Virus genome (UHGV): UHGV-1570996
DNA length: 19,300 nt
Direction: 5' to 3' (one strand)
From: a virus
This document shows positions 1 to 7,555 of this stretch, piece after piece. The translations under genes were made by a program, and so were the position numbers. Below the pieces are notes generated by a model, which made no database searches, was not told where the DNA came from, and worked only from the letters and a program-made list of their open reading frames with translations. Within the stretch, counting starts at the first letter, position 1, and every line of letters starts with the position of its first letter.

Positions 1-134
1 CCATGATTTTCATTTTCAAATATTATTAAATAACAATTCCTATTTATAATATCTGTCATTTAATTTGCTCCAGATACAAGGAATCGCCGCAGCATGGCTA
101 CGGTTGGTATTTGTTGCATACCGAAACGGTACGA

Positions 135-163
135 TTGTTGATTTGTACAGTAGGTTTTACGAT
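135..163 (+). promoter_or_regulatory. Candidate sigma70 promoter for mnt (-35 TTGTTG at 135-140, 17-bp spacer, -10 TACGAT at 158-163)
   Basis: Hexamers read directly from sequence; AT-rich region upstream of the mnt start; near-palindrome CCACCCATTTGGTG (172-185) sits between predicted TSS and RBS. Confidence 0.25.
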
Positions 164-191
164 GCCATTCCACCCATTTGGTGAGGCATTG

Positions 192-449
192 ATGATGTAC
201 AGCAAATACGATGAGGCGCAGTTCCACTTGAGGCTTACGCACGAGTTGCACGCTAAGATTAAGCAGCGTGCAAAAATGAATAACAGGTCTATCAATTCCG
301 AAATTGTGGCTACGATGGAAGAATCACTCTCCAAACCATCACCTGTAAGCGGGTATCGTGATGAAGAAGAGAGGCTGGCCTCATTAATCTCGGAACGAGT
401 AAAAGAAGTTGCGGCTGATATCCTTAGAAAAGAAAAAACCCGCGATTAA
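192..449 (+). CDS. mnt: Mnt-like ribbon-helix-helix repressor (homolog of P22 immI Mnt)
   Basis: Translation from ATG 192 (GTGAGG RBS 6 nt upstream) gives about 85 aa; N-terminal strand-helix region FHLRL...NNRSINSEIV matches the Arc/Mnt RHH pattern (recalled P22 Mnt GRSMNSEL); C-terminal SKPSPVSGYRDEEERLA closely matches recalled P22 Mnt SKPSPVTGYRNDAERLA. The ORF-track start at 111 is judged an upstream extension. Confidence 0.7.
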   Translation: MMYSKYDEAQFHLRLTHELHAKIKQRAKMNNRSINSEIVATMEESLSKPSPVSGYRDEEERLASLISERVKEVAADILRKEKTRD

Positions 450-457
450 GCGGGTTT
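436..457. terminator. Bidirectional rho-independent terminator between convergent mnt and the ant operon
   Basis: AAACCCGC-gattaa-GCGGGTTT hairpin; on the minus strand it is followed by TTTTTCTTTTCT, on the plus strand by a weaker T-rich tract; the mnt stop codon lies in the loop. Confidence 0.6.
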
Positions 458-463
458 AGTTGG

Positions 464-685
464 TTAGTTATCAAAAAGTCCGTACGTTTCTTCTTCTTCA
501 GGTGTAAGGGGAAGAATCTCTACTCTATCTATAGATACCTTTTCAATGTACCCATGAGGTCTACTTAAAATTAAAGCTCTCTCATGCCACAGAACTCCAA
601 GAATGTGATACCTTCCAGCATCGCCTTTTACCCTGGCTCTTCCTTTGATTCTTGGCGGCATAATGCCATATTTTTTCTTTGCCAT
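464..685 (-). CDS. Hypothetical 73-aa protein, translationally coupled to the upstream antirepressor gene
   Basis: ORF with ATG at 685-683 overlapping the TAA stop of the upstream gene by one base (TAATG); basic N-terminus, acidic C-terminus; no family recognised. Confidence 0.5.
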   Translation of the reverse strand: MAKKKYGIMPPRIKGRARVKGDAGRYHILGVLWHERALILSRPHGYIEKVSIDRVEILPLTPEEEETYGLFDN

Positions 686-1413
686 TATGCAACATTACTC
701 CCATGAATCAGGTGTTGTAGTGCTTTAACACCTTCCGCATTGTAGCGGAATGCTTCCACCTGTTTGCTGGAATGCGCAGATTTATCCAGGAAGAACTTAC
801 CGTACTGCTCAGTTTTGAGGTTGTTTGCGTTAGCAATGCGACCAATCTTGTTGGCCGTTACTCCAAGCTGCTCTGCAACCTCCCCTGCTGAGTAGTAATG
901 CTCTTCTATTGCTGGAAGAGGTATTGCATTAAAACCAACGATCGGGTTGATTATGCTTGCTGCCGCAGTCTGCTTTGCTTCCGGCGCAAGATTTGGCATC
1001 AAATCGAACAGATTGGTAACAGCTTCAACCGTCATTTTCAATGTTCGCGCCTGGCGATACTCAACAAGTCCACTAGACGATTTACCGCTTTTAATGTGCG
1101 CTTCTTGCATACTTTCAAGTTGGTCTACAAGTGAGCGGCGAACAGCTTTAGATTCACGAGCAGCCACTCGAAGGGCTTGCTTAATTGACATAACAACTTT
1201 TTCAGAAGTTGTCTTGTTTGATTTTTGAACTACGAAAATTTCGTAGTGCTCACCTTCAAGTTCATCCTTAATGCGTGCAATAAAGTCGTTATTGCGGACT
1301 TCTTTTTCCCCGCACTGTCTACGAGCATGATTGACCATCTCTAACAGGTACTGGCTATCAATGGTTTTATCCGTGACAACGGATCCGATGTTTGCTACAT
1401 TCTTAAAAGTCAT
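685..1413 (-). CDS. Antirepressor-family protein, Rha-like N-terminal region with KilA-C-like C-terminal domain (ant2)
   Basis: Start chosen at ATG 1413 (AAGGAA RBS 7-8 nt upstream) rather than the track start 1464; C-terminal YYSAGEVAEQLGVTANKIGRIANANNLKTEQYGKFF resembles the KilA-C/ANT C-terminal domain; N-terminal TIDSQYLLEMVNHARRQCGEKEVRNNDFIARI resembles phage Rha regulatory proteins. Confidence 0.6.
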   Translation of the reverse strand: MTFKNVANIGSVVTDKTIDSQYLLEMVNHARRQCGEKEVRNNDFIARIKDELEGEHYEIFVVQKSNKTTSEKVVMSIKQALRVAARESKAVRRSLVDQLESMQEAHIKSGKSSSGLVEYRQARTLKMTVEAVTNLFDLMPNLAPEAKQTAAASIINPIVGFNAIPLPAIEEHYYSAGEVAEQLGVTANKIGRIANANNLKTEQYGKFFLDKSAHSSKQVEAFRYNAEGVKALQHLIHGSNVA

Positions 1414-1482
1414 TAGGCATTCCTTATGTGGTAGTAAGGGTGTGACATAGGCCGCCAGCAGCACACTGGCGGTTTTCTTTTT
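1408..1482 (+). ncRNA. Candidate sar-like antisense RNA covering the RBS and start codon of ant2
   Basis: Plus-strand -35 GTGACA (1373-1378), 17-bp spacer, extended -10 TGcTACATT (1393-1401), then a plus-oriented hairpin plus T-run at 1451-1482; no plus-strand gene is present here. Confidence 0.3.
1451..1482 (+). terminator. Plus-strand rho-independent terminator in the ant1-ant2 intergenic spacer
   Basis: GCCGCCAG-cagcaca-CTGGCGG stem-loop followed by TTTTCTTTTT on the plus strand; on the minus strand the same hairpin is preceded by an A-tract with no U-tract after it, so it is oriented for plus-strand transcripts. Confidence 0.45.
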
Positions 1483-1501
1483 GCGCCGTCCGGCGCACCA
1501 A

Positions 1502-2128
1502 TCAATGAATCCATTCCTCGCCGCGCAGTTTTGCCAGCATTGGCTGAGCGTTCTTTACGACAAAATTGTTGGTATCAAGATTCTTCATTTCACGAAGAAG
1601 TGATTTCTTGGTTTCTTCTGACATGTAGCGAGTCTCATATGCAATATCGTAAATCCTTCCTGAAAGCTCAGAACCAATTTGCTTCATTCCTGGGTAGATG
1701 TGTTTGCACATTTGTTGACTCTTCTCCATCCACAATTGTAAGTAGCAGAGATTAACCAGTTCTTCGTCAGTAAACTGTTTTGCAATCGGTGAGCATTCTG
1801 CCTGCCGATCCAAAATATCCAGCACCCAGCGGCGGAACTCTTTGGCTACCGGAGTGCGAGCAAACATCGCGATTAGGTGGGCACCGCGTAGTGAGAAAAC
1901 TCGCACTTTTTTGCGATAATTTCCTGAGGTACTCACTTCGAGTACCTGAGTCATTCCGGCGCTAAATTCATCGCTATACTTGTTATAAATCATTGTTACT
2001 GCACGACTATTTGCGTATTTAAGTGCAGATGCAATATTAGATGATGTAAACCAAACACCATGCATATCACGGGTGGGCACCAACTCAACTCCGTGGAAGT
2101 TGTAATCTGATTTTGCTACAATATTCAT
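1502..2128 (-). CDS. Antirepressor-family protein with AntA/BRO-N-like N-terminal domain (ant1)
   Basis: Start chosen at ATG 2128 (AAGGAAA RBS 7 nt upstream), giving about 208 aa beginning MNIVAKSDYNFHGVELVPTRDMHGVWFTSSNIASALKY, typical of the N-terminal domain of phage antirepressors; the track start 2233 would overlap the arc ORF. Confidence 0.6.
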   Translation of the reverse strand: MNIVAKSDYNFHGVELVPTRDMHGVWFTSSNIASALKYANSRAVTMIYNKYSDEFSAGMTQVLEVSTSGNYRKKVRVFSLRGAHLIAMFARTPVAKEFRRWVLDILDRQAECSPIAKQFTDEELVNLCYLQLWMEKSQQMCKHIYPGMKQIGSELSGRIYDIAYETRYMSEETKKSLLREMKNLDTNNFVVKNAQPMLAKLRGEEWIH

Positions 2129-2205
2129 GTTAGTTTCCTTGCATACGGTTACTGACATAGAGGCCCGGTTTGTGTTCGCGCACTGCCGGGCTTCACTATT
2201 TTTAT
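2129..2205 (+). ncRNA. Candidate sar-like antisense RNA complementary to the ant1 RBS and arc-ant1 spacer
   Basis: Plus-strand extended -10 TGcTACAAT (2114-2122) just inside the ant1 start predicts a TSS near 2129; plus-oriented hairpin GCCCGG...CCGGGC (2163-2190) followed by TTCACTATTTTTATT; arrangement parallels P22 sar as recalled. Confidence 0.35.
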
Positions 2206-2375
2206 TGGATGACAACATCGCCCTTTGCCTCAAGTTTCATCAATAACTCCATTCGATAAGCTATCTCTGCCTGAATTGACCTATGGCATCTTTTTGCTGA
2301 TTCGCGGATATGTGAATCAACCTTTTCTGTAAAACGAACCTGACGCGGCTTGATGGAAGATATCTTTTCAGTCAT
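2202..2375 (-). CDS. arc: Arc-like ribbon-helix-helix repressor (57 aa; below the ORF-track size cutoff)
   Basis: Manual translation from ATG 2375 (AGGAG RBS, 6-nt spacing) to TAA 2204-2202: MTEKISSIKPRQVRFTEKVDSHIRESAKRCHRSIQAEIAYRMELLMKLEAKGDVVIQ; strand QVRF then two helices with an RS-x-x-EI motif as in P22 Arc (GRSVNSEI); lies immediately upstream of ant1 as arc does in P22. Confidence 0.65.
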   Translation of the reverse strand: MTEKISSIKPRQVRFTEKVDSHIRESAKRCHRSIQAEIAYRMELLMKLEAKGDVVIQ

Positions 2376-2424
2376 TATGCACTCCTGTTTTTGAAAAACT
2401 CATAATCTCACTTTTTGCAGTTTG

Positions 2425-2453
2425 ATTATTCACTCACACTCAGTATGAGTCAA
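2425..2453 (-). promoter_or_regulatory. Candidate Pant-like promoter with operator repeats in the spacer
   Basis: Minus-strand -35 TTGACT (plus 2453-2448), 17-bp spacer, -10 AATAAT (plus 2430-2425), about 45 nt upstream of arc; spacer holds tandem CACTCA CACTCA plus an inverted TGAGTCA copy (plus 2431-2453), including inverted repeat ACTCA-gta-TGAGT. Confidence 0.4.
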
Positions 2454-2474
2454 TGAATTTTTTATGGTGAACTA

Positions 2475-3116
2475 ATGAATTTTGACGATCAATTCCCATC
2501 AAGAGTATCTCTGGCAAGACAGTCCAGGGGTATGACGCAGGCGCAGTTGTCAAAATTAGCTGGTGTTGTTCAACGTCAAATAGCTGCATACGAGGGTGGT
2601 GAGGCTAAACCACGGCTTCGTGTATTGCAGGCATTAGCCAACGCATTAGGTACTACGGCTGAGTGGTTAGCTCTAGGTGAAGGTCAGGGTCCAGGAACAA
2701 AAAACGTCATGCCTGACGTTCTGGTAAAGCAAATACCAATTCTCAAACTAGATGAAGTTATGCATTACCTAAACACAGGTGAACATTCATCGTCTAGATT
2801 TCATCCGGCAATATACAATGTTGGTGACTCTGCATTTGCATTGACTATTGAAGGTGAAGCTATGACTACAAGTTCAGGTATTAGCTTTCCCAGAGGATCG
2901 GTTGTCACGTTCAGCCCTCTAGTAAAAGCTAAAAGCAAAGATTATGTAATAGCATCATTGGATAAAGAGCAAATATTGAGCTTCAAACAGGTTTACATTG
3001 GTGAAATAGAGACAAACCTAGTATCCCTAAACCCAATGTATCCTAATATTCTTGTTAGAAATGAAGATGTTAGTATTTTGGCAACCGCAGTTTACCTTGA
3101 AATCCCGTTGCTTTGA
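2475..3116 (+). CDS. cI/C2-like repressor: N-terminal HTH (XRE type) and C-terminal LexA/S24-like domain with catalytic Ser apparently replaced by Ala
   Basis: 213-aa ORF with GGTGA RBS; HTH region MTQAQLSKLAGVVQRQIAAYEGGEAKPRLRVLQALANALG; C-terminal EGEAMTTSSGISFPRGSVV aligns with lambda cI EGNSMTAPTGSKPSFPDG (Ser to Ala at the nucleophile), FKQV aligns with cI FKKL, and LNPMYPNI with LNPQYPMI. Confidence 0.8.
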   Translation: MNFDDQFPSRVSLARQSRGMTQAQLSKLAGVVQRQIAAYEGGEAKPRLRVLQALANALGTTAEWLALGEGQGPGTKNVMPDVLVKQIPILKLDEVMHYLNTGEHSSSRFHPAIYNVGDSAFALTIEGEAMTTSSGISFPRGSVVTFSPLVKAKSKDYVIASLDKEQILSFKQVYIGEIETNLVSLNPMYPNILVRNEDVSILATAVYLEIPLL

Positions 3117-3176
3117 TATCCTTTAGGAAGCGACACATTATCATCTGGTATCCTGCTCAAAACTAAGGAGGTTGGT

Positions 3177-3404
3177 GTGAAGCGATGGTTCCTCATAATT
3201 ACTGTTTTCGCGATCATTTACGCTATTTTCCCTGCATTAAAAGCACCAATGCAAATAATTTCACTAGCAATAATTGCAATTGGTGCTTTCATTACAGTAT
3301 CCGTACTTGTGTTTAAGGTTTTAAAGTTTTTAGTTTGGCTATCAAAAGATGATGGATGCAAAGTTCATCAAGAAAAAGAAGGCAAAATAACCAAAGTTGA
3401 CTAA
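3177..3404 (+). CDS. Small 2-TM membrane protein (75 aa) downstream of the repressor gene
   Basis: GTG start at 3177 preceded by AAGGAGG with 6-nt spacing; two hydrophobic helices (FLIITVFAIIYAIF and IISLAIIAIGAFITVSVLVF) and a charged C-terminus; its stop overlaps the stop of convergent gp16. Confidence 0.5.
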   Translation: MKRWFLIITVFAIIYAIFPALKAPMQIISLAIIAIGAFITVSVLVFKVLKFLVWLSKDDGCKVHQEKEGKITKVD

Positions 3405-5524
3405 CTGTCACTAGCGAGCCATGTAATAATCCCAGTGCGAGCAATGGTTTTTGCTTCATCTGTTGATAGGGTTTTCTCCCATCTCTTAAATACCCCAGAT
3501 TGCATCAGTTTCCTTTCTATTGCGCGTCTCACTTCTGCTCTGTCTACTGGTGCGTTTTGCAGGCGAAATAGCATTGATTTAAACTCAGGAGAAGACAGTA
3601 GAGCATCAGCAGCCTTTATCCTGCTTGTTTTCCCTGACATCAATGCGGACGTTATCACCCCTGTTGCACCTACACCAGGAAGACCAGATAAGCTTGTAAC
3701 ACCTTCCGCCGCAGCAGCTTTTGAGGCTATTCCATAAATTTTTGCTAGACTACCCTTTTCCTTCAGAAAGTTATTAACTTGCTGATCCACAAGGCTGCTA
3801 GCATACTGCTTACCAGTATTGAGTCTATTCATAGCCTTGGCTGCTTGATAAATCGTATCAAGGCGCTTTGATGCATCTGTGCCAATAGCATCACGGAGAG
3901 CCTTCATATTGGCCCCATTGCGTGACATTCCGTTATACCATTTTACAAATCCATCAACCCCTAATTGCTGACCTGGTGATTTAGCATAGCTGGTAAATGC
4001 TTTATTCATTGAGGTGAGCGCAACTTCCTGCCGCATATCCTTTGGAATTGACTTCATTAATTGCCTAAAGTCACCACCGTTTCCTTTTGCCATATTAACA
4101 ACGGCACTTTCAACTTTTGGAATTGCTGATTGCTGAAGTTTTCTACCCAAAACGGTTACGGCATCATCTTCAATGGATTTTCGTGTTTTTACCAACTCCT
4201 TACCAAGCGTCCATAACTCCCCTGCGCCATATTTTTCTGCGACAGCCTGTTGGTCATCTGTTATAGCTGCATATAACTTTTTAAGAACACCTGTTTCTTC
4301 ATCCTTGAATGGGCCAGAGCCTTTGCCAATAGCTTGCCCAACCTGCTTTCTAGCGAGATCTAAACGCCCATACGTTGGCAAGGTGTTTGGATCAAGTCGG
4401 TTCAATGTCCGCTTCATTATTGGAGATAATTCATCAATTCCACCTATGTCATCAGCAAAATCCTCTAAAAAATTCAATGTATTGGTTGCCTCAATACGGT
4501 CTCTTACTGGAACCTTTTCGGCAATTTTGTTGTAGATGTTATCTGACTGATTTTGTAATGATGAAATGGTTTTATCAAAATTATCTGCAAGCCTGTCAGA
4601 AACCAGTTGCTTATCAAGGTTTCCCCCAAATGAAGTTATCATTTCATCAGCTTTTCTTCCTAATTCAGTAATAAAGCGCTTATGCGCCTCACTAATCTCT
4701 GTTCCAGGAAGACTTGCCACTGCATTATCAAGAGCCCTGACAGCAGGATTATTAGAGATCATTCCTGGAGTGGCATAATTTTCCAGTTCTAGCTCACGGA
4801 TGGCATTTATCGCGTTAAAATCAGGATTAACTTCATCGGCGAAACCTTGAATAGCTCGTTGCCCGCCAATAAATTTATTATCCATTGCGCCAGCAGCTTT
4901 CTTTAACGTTGCTTTAAATGATTTACTCCCCATCCCTACGGATGAGCGATAAATATCCCCGGCACTATTTTTAATTTTTCCTGCAATCTTCCCAAGCGCT
5001 GGACCAACAATCTCGGCTACAGGGCCAGCCACAGCGCCAATAGCAGCGCCGGAAGCAACATCGCTATTTGTTCCATTGGCTACAATAGCCCCTTCTCCAG
5101 CACCAAGCCCTGCGGCGGCAGCCAGCCTTGCCGCCCCTTTCGGAACCTGAGAAATAATCCCACCACCACTAACAAATGGCGCGGCTTGTCCAACAAACTC
5201 ACCAACATCTTGTGCGGTTGATGGTTTTGCCGCTAACTTCTGCTGTAGAGACTGAATTGCGGCTTGCTCTTCTGGTGTCATATCCTGAAACAGGCCAACA
5301 CCTTTACCAACATCCATCAATCCACTGAGAACGCCATACATAAAACGGTCGAAGCCGTTAGCATTATTAACAACATTTTCCTGTCTGGAATTTTCCTCTG
5401 GTGAAACCAAAGGAGATTGCTGCTGTTCTGGTTGGGCATCAAGCACAAAGCCATCAGGAAGCTGTGAGTTATCAGGCTGATTATCGAGAACAAAGCCTTC
5501 GGGTAAACCTACATCGGTTGCCAT
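3401..5524 (-). CDS. gp16-like ejection (internal virion) protein, N-terminally extended with a short tandem repeat
   Basis: 707-aa ORF at the position of P22 gene 16 (last gene of the morphogenesis operon after gp20); Ala/Gly-rich low-complexity segments; N-terminus carries [12 protein letters not shown] / [12 protein letters not shown] repeat. Confidence 0.65.
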
Positions 5525-6852
5525 TGTCCGTTCCTGTAAATGAGTTTCTGACCAGTTTTAGGGTTCGTTGCCGTCGCGCCTTCTGATATCCCACTTGGCG
5601 CAGCTTTTGTCTGCCCATTACCACCTTGTGGTGTAGGCTGCGCTGGGACATCGTCAAATAGCTTGGCCTTCCTTCTCCCTAAGCTTTTTTTCAGCCCCTG
5701 AGGAATAGTATCTCCATACGTATCCAGATATTCGTCTACCTGCTGGTTAAACTGCTGCCCCATAGCGTTGGCGTTAATTTTTGCTGCGTTAACAATGTTA
5801 TCCCTCGCTTCCTGTGACAAGCCATTCCCTGCATTAAGCTGGTCTACATATCCTTTTATCTGCCCCCATATGCCATCAGAGCGCATAACCTGAACCTGTT
5901 CACCTTCGCGAACAACTGACTGAGGGTCGAGAGACTTCATGTAATTAAAGATAATCCCAAGTTGGGCAGCGCCAGTATTTACCTTGCTAAGGGCTTGCAG
6001 AGAGTTTGCCGCCGCTCTGACAGAGTTATAATTTTTACCAAAATTGGTAATGTCAGAATTTAATCCCTTAATTAAGTCTGCTGACGGCTTACCTTTTTGC
6101 CCCAGCTCCATTAGCTTCAATCCCATCTCATCTGAGTGCATTTGTGCCCGCTGAGCCCTGTCTAGTTGAGCGTTTTGGATATTTGCCCATCCTCTCGCGT
6201 TCTCCATGTCAGCCTGACGGATGCTTTCATCCAATCGCCCTTTCTCAAGTTGGCGACCAACCATCTTATCCTGATAATCCAGCATTTTATCCGGACCAAC
6301 AGCCCCTAGCGTCATAGTAGTCAGCATGTGTGATAGCTGCTCTGGATTCTGAATACCTGTCTGAATCATCCAGTCAGCATTCGCCCCCACGCGATTTAAC
6401 CTGTCCTTGTTATCAGTAATGAATTTACTGTAGGCTTCCGGTCCCTGAGAAAGAGCGACGTTAGCCCTCATGGCTAAATCGCCCATATCGTTGCGTTGCT
6501 GCTCATTAAGACCGGAAAATGCCTGTTGTGCCTGTGCAACAAACGCTGGATTTTCCTGGGCAAACTTAAATAGTCCCGATGGATCACCAGAAGCCCATGC
6601 ATCAGCATGAACCTTATTGAACGCATTAATCGCTTTCTGTTGCTGTTCCTGCTTATAAATATCAGCAACTCCAGCCAGACCACGTAACGCGGTCAGACCA
6701 ACGTTATTTGCACCTGAGCGAGCCAGTTCATTGTTTTCGCGGATCAGACCAAGCGTTGCGTTAATGTCGCTTGCCTTTGGCGCATTCTCATTTTGCGCAC
6801 CGATGCCAGCCAGAAAACCACCAGAATTAATACCCTGTTGCCACGTAGCCAT
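5509..6852 (-). CDS. gp20-like ejection protein
   Basis: 447-aa ORF between the gp7-like and gp16-like genes, matching P22 gene order 7-20-16; assignment by synteny and size. Confidence 0.65.
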
Positions 6853-6862
6853 TGATTACCCC

Positions 6863-7555
6863 TTAAAACAACGAGCCAAGCAGACCAAGACCGCCGCCGA
6901 TCGCAGCCCCCCACGGAGTTGATGAACCAATTAATTTCGCAAGTCCGGCCCCAGCAATAGCACCAGACGCACCTCCGCCAATAGCAGATTGCATTGCTGA
7001 TGGTCTGTTGGCATTTGCCGCTGCAAGAGCCGCACTTTGCTGCGAAATCTGACTCATGTTGTTGGCATATGTCTGCCCTGCGTTTGCCTGACCTTGCAGA
7101 GCACCAAGCCCAACGTTTGCCAGATTCTGGTAGTTGTTCATCTGACCAGACAGCCACTGCTGACCAAGCGTTGGTGCGATTGTTGCTAACTGATTACCGG
7201 TTGCAGTGGAACCCAATCCACCTGTTGCTTCCGCTGCAGCCAGACTCTGATAGCGAGCCTGACCAGCAAGATCTTTGTACTGCTGAGAGTTGTAATACTG
7301 GTTAAGCGCCTGACCTTGCCCTTCCAGAGACGATAAGTTCTCGAGGCTGCCGACATACTTATCAGCCAGAGGAGTAAACGGCTTCAGGTTGTTCATGATG
7401 GTGTTGAACTGCTGATTTTGCAGGTCTGCGGCATACTTCTGAGCTTCTGCTGCATACTTTGCGCTTTTATCAGAGCTGCCACCTTTCCCGCCTTTTTCAG
7501 GGCACCAAGGTTCCTCGCCGCGCAGTTTTCTGCCCAGCTTAAATGCATATAACAT
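6863..7555 (-). CDS. gp7-like ejection protein
   Basis: 230-aa ORF (P22 gp7 is about 229 aa) in syntenic position; Gln/Ala/Gly-rich with hydrophobic glycine-rich C-terminus. Confidence 0.65.
   Translation of the reverse strand: MLYAFKLGRKLRGEEPWCPEKGGKGGSSDKSAKYAAEAQKYAADLQNQQFNTIMNNLKPFTPLADKYVGSLENLSSLEGQGQALNQYYNSQQYKDLAGQARYQSLAAAEATGGLGSTATGNQLATIAPTLGQQWLSGQMNNYQNLANVGLGALQGQANAGQTYANNMSQISQQSAALAAANANRPSAMQSAIGGGASGAIAGAGLAKLIGSSTPWGAAIGGGLGLLGSLF

Follow-up and report, generated by a model that had tools for sequence, protein, structure and literature searches.

Organization of the locus

The window, meaning the whole 19,300-nt stretch of DNA that was analyzed, appears to be the end of the late operon of a P22-like (Lederbergvirus) E. 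coli prophage, and its best DNA matches were E. coli chromosomes, with 95-97% identity. Its minus strand carries gp7 (Pfam P22_gp7; 6863-7555), gp20 (Pfam Inj_translocase; 5509-6852) and the gene for a 707-aa gene-16-type ejection (DNA transfer) protein (3401-5524), which matched phrog_6704 over its full length and phrog_770, ‘DNA transfer protein’, weakly (E 3e-26). Convergent with this gene, on the plus strand, is the 75-aa ORF studied here (3177-3404, GTG start, TAA stop), which is preceded on the same strand by the gene for a 213-aa cI/C2-like repressor of the ant moron (2475-3116; Pfam HTH_3 and Peptidase_S24).

The cI-like gene is part of the ant moron and diverges from a 57-aa Arc/RHH-like gene and the antirepressor gene. 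The Arc/RHH-like gene (2202-2375, minus strand) is the first of the antirepressor operon and matched phrog_10182, with weaker matches to the Arc-like phrog_228 and to ParD_like; the antirepressor Ant (1502-2233, minus strand) was recognized by Pfam and PHROG (Bro-N and P22_AR_C). Between the divergent Arc-like and cI-like genes we observed a perfect 13-nt palindrome, ACTCAGTATGAGT, at 2438-2450, which is a candidate operator and overlaps the -35 element of a predicted leftward promoter (TTGACT-17-AATAAT, 2453-2425). A second regulatory module in the same moron consists of an Mnt/Arc-type RHH gene (111-449, plus strand) convergent with a 73-aa gene (464-685, minus strand), together with a gene for a 259-aa antirepressor (phrog_1726; 685-1464, minus strand). 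Therefore, as in JEP4, two antirepressor genes and two different repressors occur together in the ant-moron region.

DNA searches showed that the region is mosaic. JEP4 matched the repressor gene up to the start of the 75-aa ORF, E212 and EC.P3 matched the 75-aa ORF and the end of gene 16, and the two matches overlap in approximately 47 nt just upstream of the ORF. The presence of an RNA gene in this region was rejected because an Rfam search of positions 1-7000 (E up to 1) gave nothing relevant.

Evidence that the 75-aa ORF is a gene under selection

The original prediction described a 75-aa ORF initiated by a strong AAGGAGG sequence, with a stop codon overlapping that of the convergent gene 16, and both features were found. 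AAGGAGG occupies 3165-3171, within TAAGGAGGT (3164-3172), and the GTG follows five nt on; at the other end, the TAA (3402-3404) and the minus-strand TAG of gene 16 (3401-3403) have two bases in common, and the two reading frames overlap by 4 nt. The gene is 34% GC, compared with 45-52% for the structural genes, and is moron-like in this respect.

The length of the ORF alone does not beat chance in 36% GC DNA. We conclude that it is a gene because of four observations. Its product matched PHROG 7294, a phage protein family without an assigned function, over the full length (residues 1-75 on profile positions 1-75 of 75, E 3e-48); the frame was intact in 12 of 12 distinct DNA variants, the sole length variant being an in-frame duplication of three residues, LKF; two independent ribosome-binding contexts occur in front of it, with AAGGAGG before GTG in one and GGGAGG before ATG in the other; and its dN/dS is 0.29 against the divergent homologue described below. 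A search of 5.8 billion proteins returned 21 clusters, all at least 78% identical to the 75-aa protein and all from E. coli and Salmonella. The most frequent variant, found on 619 contigs, is the one that has ATG and GGGAGG in another upstream context. Longer database entries were recognized as upstream mis-starts, in which the leader region is translated into differing N-terminal junk.

When 1.84 billion representatives were searched exhaustively with an HMM, a single further true homologue emerged, the distant P0022, which is also 75 aa long and is 57% identical; two long matches from the same search (P0023 and P0024) were dismissed as repetitive hydrophobic proteins. The family thus amounts to two clusters at 50% identity among the 1.84 billion representatives, and 34 of the 5426 complete E. 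coli genomes searched had the gene. No significant match to the protein was found in Pfam, NCBIfam or PADLOC, and Pfam at E values up to 10 gave DUF4229 alone (E 4.1). A tblastn search of 50,697 phage records found E212 and EC.P3 only, and hence no T4-like phage with a detectable relative. In phage E212 (MZ043897.1) the gene is present at 4043-4270 of the locus that we compared, where it is unannotated; the adjacent gene-16 homologue is labelled ‘transglycosylase’, for which Pfam and NCBIfam searches gave no backing.

Comparison of the window gene with the gene for P0022 (locus L133, 68% DNA identity) gave an overall dN/dS of 0.29 at a dS of approximately 1.06, with values of 0.46 in the transmembrane part and 0.12 in residues 47-75. 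Among 16 variants, residues 44-75 were invariant save for position 63. Our results indicate that the 75-aa protein is under purifying selection, which is strongest on the juxtamembrane and tail segment LKFLxxLSKxDxCKVxQExxGKITKVD. That the ORF arose by chance, or is a decaying and functionless remnant, would agree with the very small size of the family, its rarity in E. coli genomes and the values of 0.3-1.4 for dN/dS between close variants, which are noisy because very few changes are involved. However, the selection seen against the divergent homologue, the intact frame in every copy, the two different and good Shine-Dalgarno contexts and the spread of one variant over 619 contigs make this explanation extremely improbable.

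Predicted structure of the 75-aa protein

Hydropathy analysis bore out the claim of a double-pass membrane protein, for which topology prediction had been proposed as a check. Two Kyte-Doolittle peaks reached 2.6-2.8 over 17-19 residues, placing TM1 at approximately residues 4-21 (nt 3186-3239) and TM2 at approximately residues 26-46 (nt 3252-3314), with the loop FPALKAP between them. TM2 is followed by KVLKFLVWLSK and then by the rest of a conserved, amphipathic and charged tail (residues 47-75, nt 3315-3401). Applying the positive-inside rule to K2 and R3 at the N terminus and to seven lysines in the tail suggests an N-in/C-in hairpin. With a predicted periplasmic loop of only about five residues, any action of the protein would have to be intramembrane or on the cytoplasmic side. 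AlphaFold2, run on a shallow alignment, returned a single continuous helix (pLDDT 77, pTM 0.38), a model that speaks neither for nor against the hairpin.

A conserved leader precedes exchangeable coding sequences

The 33 nt that end with the start codon of the 75-aa ORF (3147-3179, plus strand), GGTATCCTGCTCAAAACTAAGGAGGTTGGTGTG, include its Shine-Dalgarno sequence and form a conserved leader, as seen by alignment to P22 sieA, HK620 hkcB, epsilon34 gene 14, JEP4 and E212. The stretch of approximately 47 nt upstream of the ORF was found in 71 phage records, and over the 34 nt through the start codon, identity to the P22 sieA leader is 97%. In P22, the stretch lies under ‘sieA’ and the annotated sieA promoter, and PsieA ends where the conserved stretch starts. 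An alignment of six phages showed TGGTATCCTGCnnAAAACTAAGGAGGTTGGTGTG, in which only the two n positions vary, in front of five different coding sequences, i.e., P22 sieA, HK620 hkcB, epsilon34 gene 14, an unannotated ORF of JEP4, and the 75-aa ORF (E212 and the window); the GTG of the leader is the start codon in every one of them. A 281-nt query matched 417 of 5426 complete E. coli genomes, of which 383 matched in a short part only, mostly the leader of about 50 nt.

The leader could alternatively be read as the 5’ end of a divergent gene, as hkcC starts beside it in P22 and HK620. This reading was rejected because no divergent gene starts beside the leader in the window, JEP4 or E212, and yet the leader is conserved there.

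IMG/VR was scanned with the leader pattern, and the products were translated from the GTG and clustered. This gave, in P22-like phages and prophages, at least 124 complete cargo ORFs in at least 12 unrelated families behind the 33-nt leader (GGTATCCTGCnnAAAACTAAGGAGGTTGGTGTG; loci L001-L125). Among the matches listed, the families were the HkcB/epsilon34-gp14 type (24 members), a 129-aa signal-peptide-like protein (22), a 109-aa protein with a transmembrane segment and coiled coil (13), a 62-aa two-TM protein (12), SieA type A (12), the 75-aa protein (10) and six rarer families. An N-terminal transmembrane or signal-like segment was present in 11 of these 12 listed families, two of them by inspection only, and annotation was available among them for SieA and a YobH-like domain only. 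The cassettes are AT-rich (34-43% GC). Upstream contexts, of which there were at least 36 distinct sequences, and cargo are freely shuffled. For example, the 3’ end of the same cI-like gene followed by the leader preceded six different cargoes among the matches listed: SieA type A (L024 and L038), the 75-aa protein (the window and L012), the 62-aa protein (four times) and three other families.

Starting from the GTG of the leader (GGTATCCTGCNNAAAACTAAGGAGGTTGGTGTG), the 75-aa ORF runs toward the convergent gene 16. It lies between the gene-16 homologue and immI/ant, so that its earlier assignment to the sieA region of P22-like phages is borne out and extended by the shared sieA leader; all 20 copies of the gene among the matches listed have the P22-like position between homologues of genes 16 and 9. 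Thus, the 75-aa gene is an alternative cassette, or ‘allele’, of the sieA slot and not a SieA homologue. Variability of the ‘ant moron’ has been published before, with ten types in sixteen genomes (Villafane et al. 2008, PMC2629481), and we found no mention of the shared leader or of the bias toward envelope proteins in that paper.

Upstream genes and probable expression

The 75-aa gene was originally predicted to be expressed in the lysogen since it lies 60 bp downstream of a cI-like repressor gene with no terminator between, and this position, the one that superinfection-exclusion genes hold in P22-like phages, made it a candidate exclusion or abortive-infection factor. The spacing was confirmed: the TGA of the cI-like gene is at 3114-3116, the spacer is exactly 60 nt (3117-3176), and no terminator-like hairpin was found in a scan of this interval. 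The upstream gene is indeed a co-oriented HTH_3/Peptidase_S24 gene, but it encodes a second, ant-moron repressor and not the main immunity repressor, as the related phage JEP4 possesses both this gene and a distinct, normal immC c2-cro-c1 region. Furthermore, the placement is not conserved and was seen in only 2 of 17 close copies among the matches listed. The idea that the gene is located downstream of the main repressor of the prophage was therefore rejected, on the basis of the JEP4 immC c2 gene and of the five upstream contexts of these 17 copies.

Alignment of the cI-like protein to lambda cI structures showed that the catalytic Ser149 (EGNSMT) is replaced by Ala (EGEAMT), and its S24 domain is probably not self-cleaving. 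The protein probably replaces Mnt as the repressor of the adjacent Arc-like/Ant operon and, by analogy with Mnt, its gene is probably expressed in the lysogen.

A promoter-like site, TTGATA-17 nt-CATTAT, was predicted at 3113-3141 on the plus strand; the stop codon of the cI-like gene falls within it, and 5 nt separate its end from the leader. Its score is 9.5, and a score of at least 9 was obtained for only 2% of random 63-mers drawn from the loci. Promoter-like sites were not enriched in the region, with 3 found and 3.6 expected from shuffled sequences.

The other upstream contexts of close copies, among the matches listed, were of the P22, E212 and epsilon34 types and mnt-orf92-orf186-orf75. 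In the P22-type context (four contigs), the 75-aa gene is preceded by a terminator, a PsieA-like region and divergent hkcC, and the terminator and PsieA-like region imply a sieA-like independent transcription unit there. A further context was seen for the divergent copy in L133, which lies downstream of a ClpP-like gene. In the commonest variant (L126-L132, ~3875-5228; Salmonella Kentucky and E. coli), the co-oriented genes mnt-orf92-orf186-orf75 end with the 75-aa gene, and orf186 encodes a coiled-coil protein with a C-terminal TM anchor that is annotated as ‘CCDC90 family’.

Because linkage to the cI-like gene is not conserved, expression from a promoter directly upstream of the leader, or from the mnt operon in the commonest variant, is more likely than expression tied to this repressor. 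The lysogen would most likely transcribe the 75-aa gene, using a promoter immediately before the leader and, in the window, probably read-through from the ant-moron repressor gene as well, and translation would use the same leader, Shine-Dalgarno sequence and GTG as for sieA. A terminator-like hairpin with a T-rich tail is present on the plus strand at 3608-3625, inside gene 16 and approximately 200 nt past the stop codon of the 75-aa ORF. This hairpin could end the transcript of the sieA slot.

Linkage of the 75-aa gene to one gene-16 type

Among the matches listed, 20 of 20 copies of the 75-aa gene adjoined a single C-terminal type of gene 16 with the same 4-nt overlap; this was true for 10 of 10 leader-bearing copies, 7 of 7 copies of the ATG variant and 3 of 3 copies of the divergent homologue. 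The gene-16 partner in L133, the one long contig of the divergent homologue, is 78% identical to that of the window. The 707-aa type is only 21-24% identical to the HK620 and epsilon34 homologues and had no detectable similarity to P22 gp16. Other cassettes are partly linked to gene-16 types but recombine, five cargo families being found beside the P22-type gene 16 among the matches listed. The linkage of the 75-aa gene to its gene-16 type can be explained by physical adjacency alone.

Constant adjacency, with the 4-nt overlap kept even at 68% nucleotide identity, might also be expected if the 75-aa protein served the lytic cycle as an accessory of the 707-aa gp16, i.e., as a membrane partner, chaperone or immunity factor, or acted like a holin or antiholin. 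Class II holins (e.g., the S21 type) are about 70 aa long, with two TM helices and a charged C-terminal tail, and the 75-aa protein shares this textbook layout, which is a generic architecture. However, the gene is not in a lysis cassette, has no adjacent endolysin gene or dual-start motif, and lies on the side that would be expressed by the prophage, where the strong Shine-Dalgarno sequence would be lethal for a true holin. No holin family match was found in Pfam or PHROGs, and JEP4 has a complete holin-lysin-Rz cassette elsewhere. In addition, the orientation of the gene is opposite to that of the late operon, so that it cannot be cotranscribed with gene 16, and L057 and L068 carry this gene-16 type with another cargo in place of the 75-aa gene. 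A lytic accessory role is, therefore, quite improbable.

Relationship to SieA and other exclusion systems

P22 SieA is the characterized protein with which the 75-aa protein is best compared. SieA proteins of types A, B and C have 162-200 aa, 3-4 predicted TM segments and a C-terminal FxRYPxEAxxFNK motif on the cytoplasmic side (Leavitt et al. 2024, PMC10883804). SieA blocks injection of P22-like phage DNA, mutations that escape it map to the C-terminal regions of gp16 and gp20, and only about one third of P22-like phages carry sieA (PMC10883804). P22 sieA and the 75-aa gene are alike in slot, orientation, 33-nt leader, Shine-Dalgarno sequence and GTG start, both are AT-rich cargo on the prophage side with a predicted inner-membrane product, and in other phages they interchange behind the same upstream gene. 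On the other hand, the 75-aa protein is much shorter than SieA and has two TM segments by hydropathy. BLASTP against P22 SieA gave an E value of 2.3 over short hydrophobic stretches only, the two did not cluster at E 1e-5, and the FxRYPxEAxxFNK motif was absent from the 29-residue tail. HK620 HkcB and epsilon34 gp14, which occupy the same slot behind the same leader, are likewise small and envelope-targeted; HkcB-type proteins have one N-terminal TM segment and a coiled coil, and their sequence is unrelated to that of the 75-aa protein.

T4 Imm is similar in size to the 75-aa protein and has two hydrophobic segments. It comes from a lytic phage and a different genomic context and has no known homology to the 75-aa protein, so that the analogy is purely functional: Imm is described as a small membrane protein, encoded by the phage, that keeps related phages from injecting their DNA (Lu & Henning 1989, cited in PMC11436027).

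In the mechanism that we propose, the 75-aa protein would be a small inner-membrane helical hairpin and one of at least 12 interchangeable cargo cassettes of the sieA slot, and superinfection exclusion at the DNA-entry step would be its most likely job. Like SieA, though unrelated to it and far smaller, the protein may use its TM hairpin and conserved cytoplasmic tail to interfere with the gp16/gp20 conduit of superinfecting P22-like phages. This reading draws on the sieA slot and orientation, the shared leader, the presence of SieA among the cargoes and the swap of the two behind the same cI-like gene, as well as on the constant linkage to gene 16, purifying selection, the moron-like GC content of 34% and the independent transcription unit in four contigs. 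Against it are the absence of SieA homology or of its motif, the lack of a PADLOC, Pfam or NCBIfam match, and the weak promoter predictions. Since SieA is the only one of the 12 listed cassette families with a known function, occupancy of the slot does not prove an exclusion function. We tentatively favor the interpretation that the 75-aa protein is a minimal injection blocker, non-homologous to SieA, that would act at the inner membrane via its TM pair and conserved cytoplasmic tail, although we would put its chances slightly below even.

The same small inner-membrane architecture with a conserved cytoplasmic tail would also suit a moron that is expressed by the prophage and acts on the host, either as a small membrane regulator that binds a host transporter, sensor or envelope machine or as a membrane-depolarizing abortive-infection effector. 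Envelope proteins of very diverse kinds occupy the slot, with a YobH-like one among them, and 10 of the families among the matches listed are uncharacterized; PADLOC gave a match to ‘4TM effector’ that is weak and not significant (E 0.046). However, no family assignment points to a host target, the sole characterized occupant of the slot is an injection blocker, and the 75-aa gene is strictly linked to one ejection-protein type. We consider a host-directed function somewhat unlikely.

PHROG 7294 had already been catalogued, though not characterized, and the variability of the region and the function of SieA had been published. The present analysis adds the assignment of the 75-aa gene to the sieA slot, as a cassette with the sieA leader; it also describes how selection acts on the gene, ties the gene to one gene-16 type, and outlines a set of at least 12 envelope cassettes behind one leader. 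Other phages have, in the same slot and after the same leader, at least 11 further small proteins of unrelated sequence, and in ten of these an N-terminal membrane or signal-like segment is present. Should these cassettes be alternative exclusion proteins, they would provide a ready panel to dissect the gp7/gp20/gp16 conduit that crosses the inner membrane and to study the coevolution of phages and prophages around it. The 75-aa hairpin would then be the smallest such tool, and the phages that carry it, E212 and EC.P3, are cultivable. Without an exclusion function, the 75-aa gene would be no more than an ordinary hypothetical moron gene.

A junction motif at the 3’ ends of most cassettes

The cassettes also share a feature at their 3’ ends. 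The motif CC[ATG]TCC[ATG]TGG, often in the form GCCATCCATGGC, which is a near-dyad, was located at or beside the cargo stop codon at 83 of the 124 sites listed (loci L002-L125), and these 83 sites were nearly all of its 88 occurrences in 1.26 Mb. Among the matches listed, it was found in 9 of the 12 cargo families and beside all six gene-16 types with more than one locus. This motif may be a recombination linker or a binding site. The 75-aa cassette differs from most other ant-moron cassettes in this regard, as the motif was found at the stop codon in none of its 10 copies listed and was absent from positions 3390-3440 of the window. Its absence fits the tighter linkage of the 75-aa cassette to gene 16.

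A broader version of the exclusion reading would take the sieA slot as a dedicated cassette-exchange locus, bounded by the 33-nt leader on the 5’ side and mostly by the 11-nt junction motif on the 3’ side, flanks that would allow unrelated envelope proteins to replace one another, with each of the at least 12 families being a distinct DNA-entry blocker matched to types of ejection protein. The 75-aa hairpin would be the minimal one, acting on the 707-aa gp16 family via its TM pair and cytoplasmic tail. We regard this extended scheme as speculative and unlikely in its full form.

Finally, in four loci (L026, L029, L057 and L068), a hydrophobic ORF of 21-22 aa (MVTVGWIIAFLIAFWVGRHWL or MVTVGWIIVALLVALWAKNRYY) with its own GGAG was observed 26-32 nt past the cargo stop codon, where the 3’ end of gene 16, read from the other strand, overlaps it.
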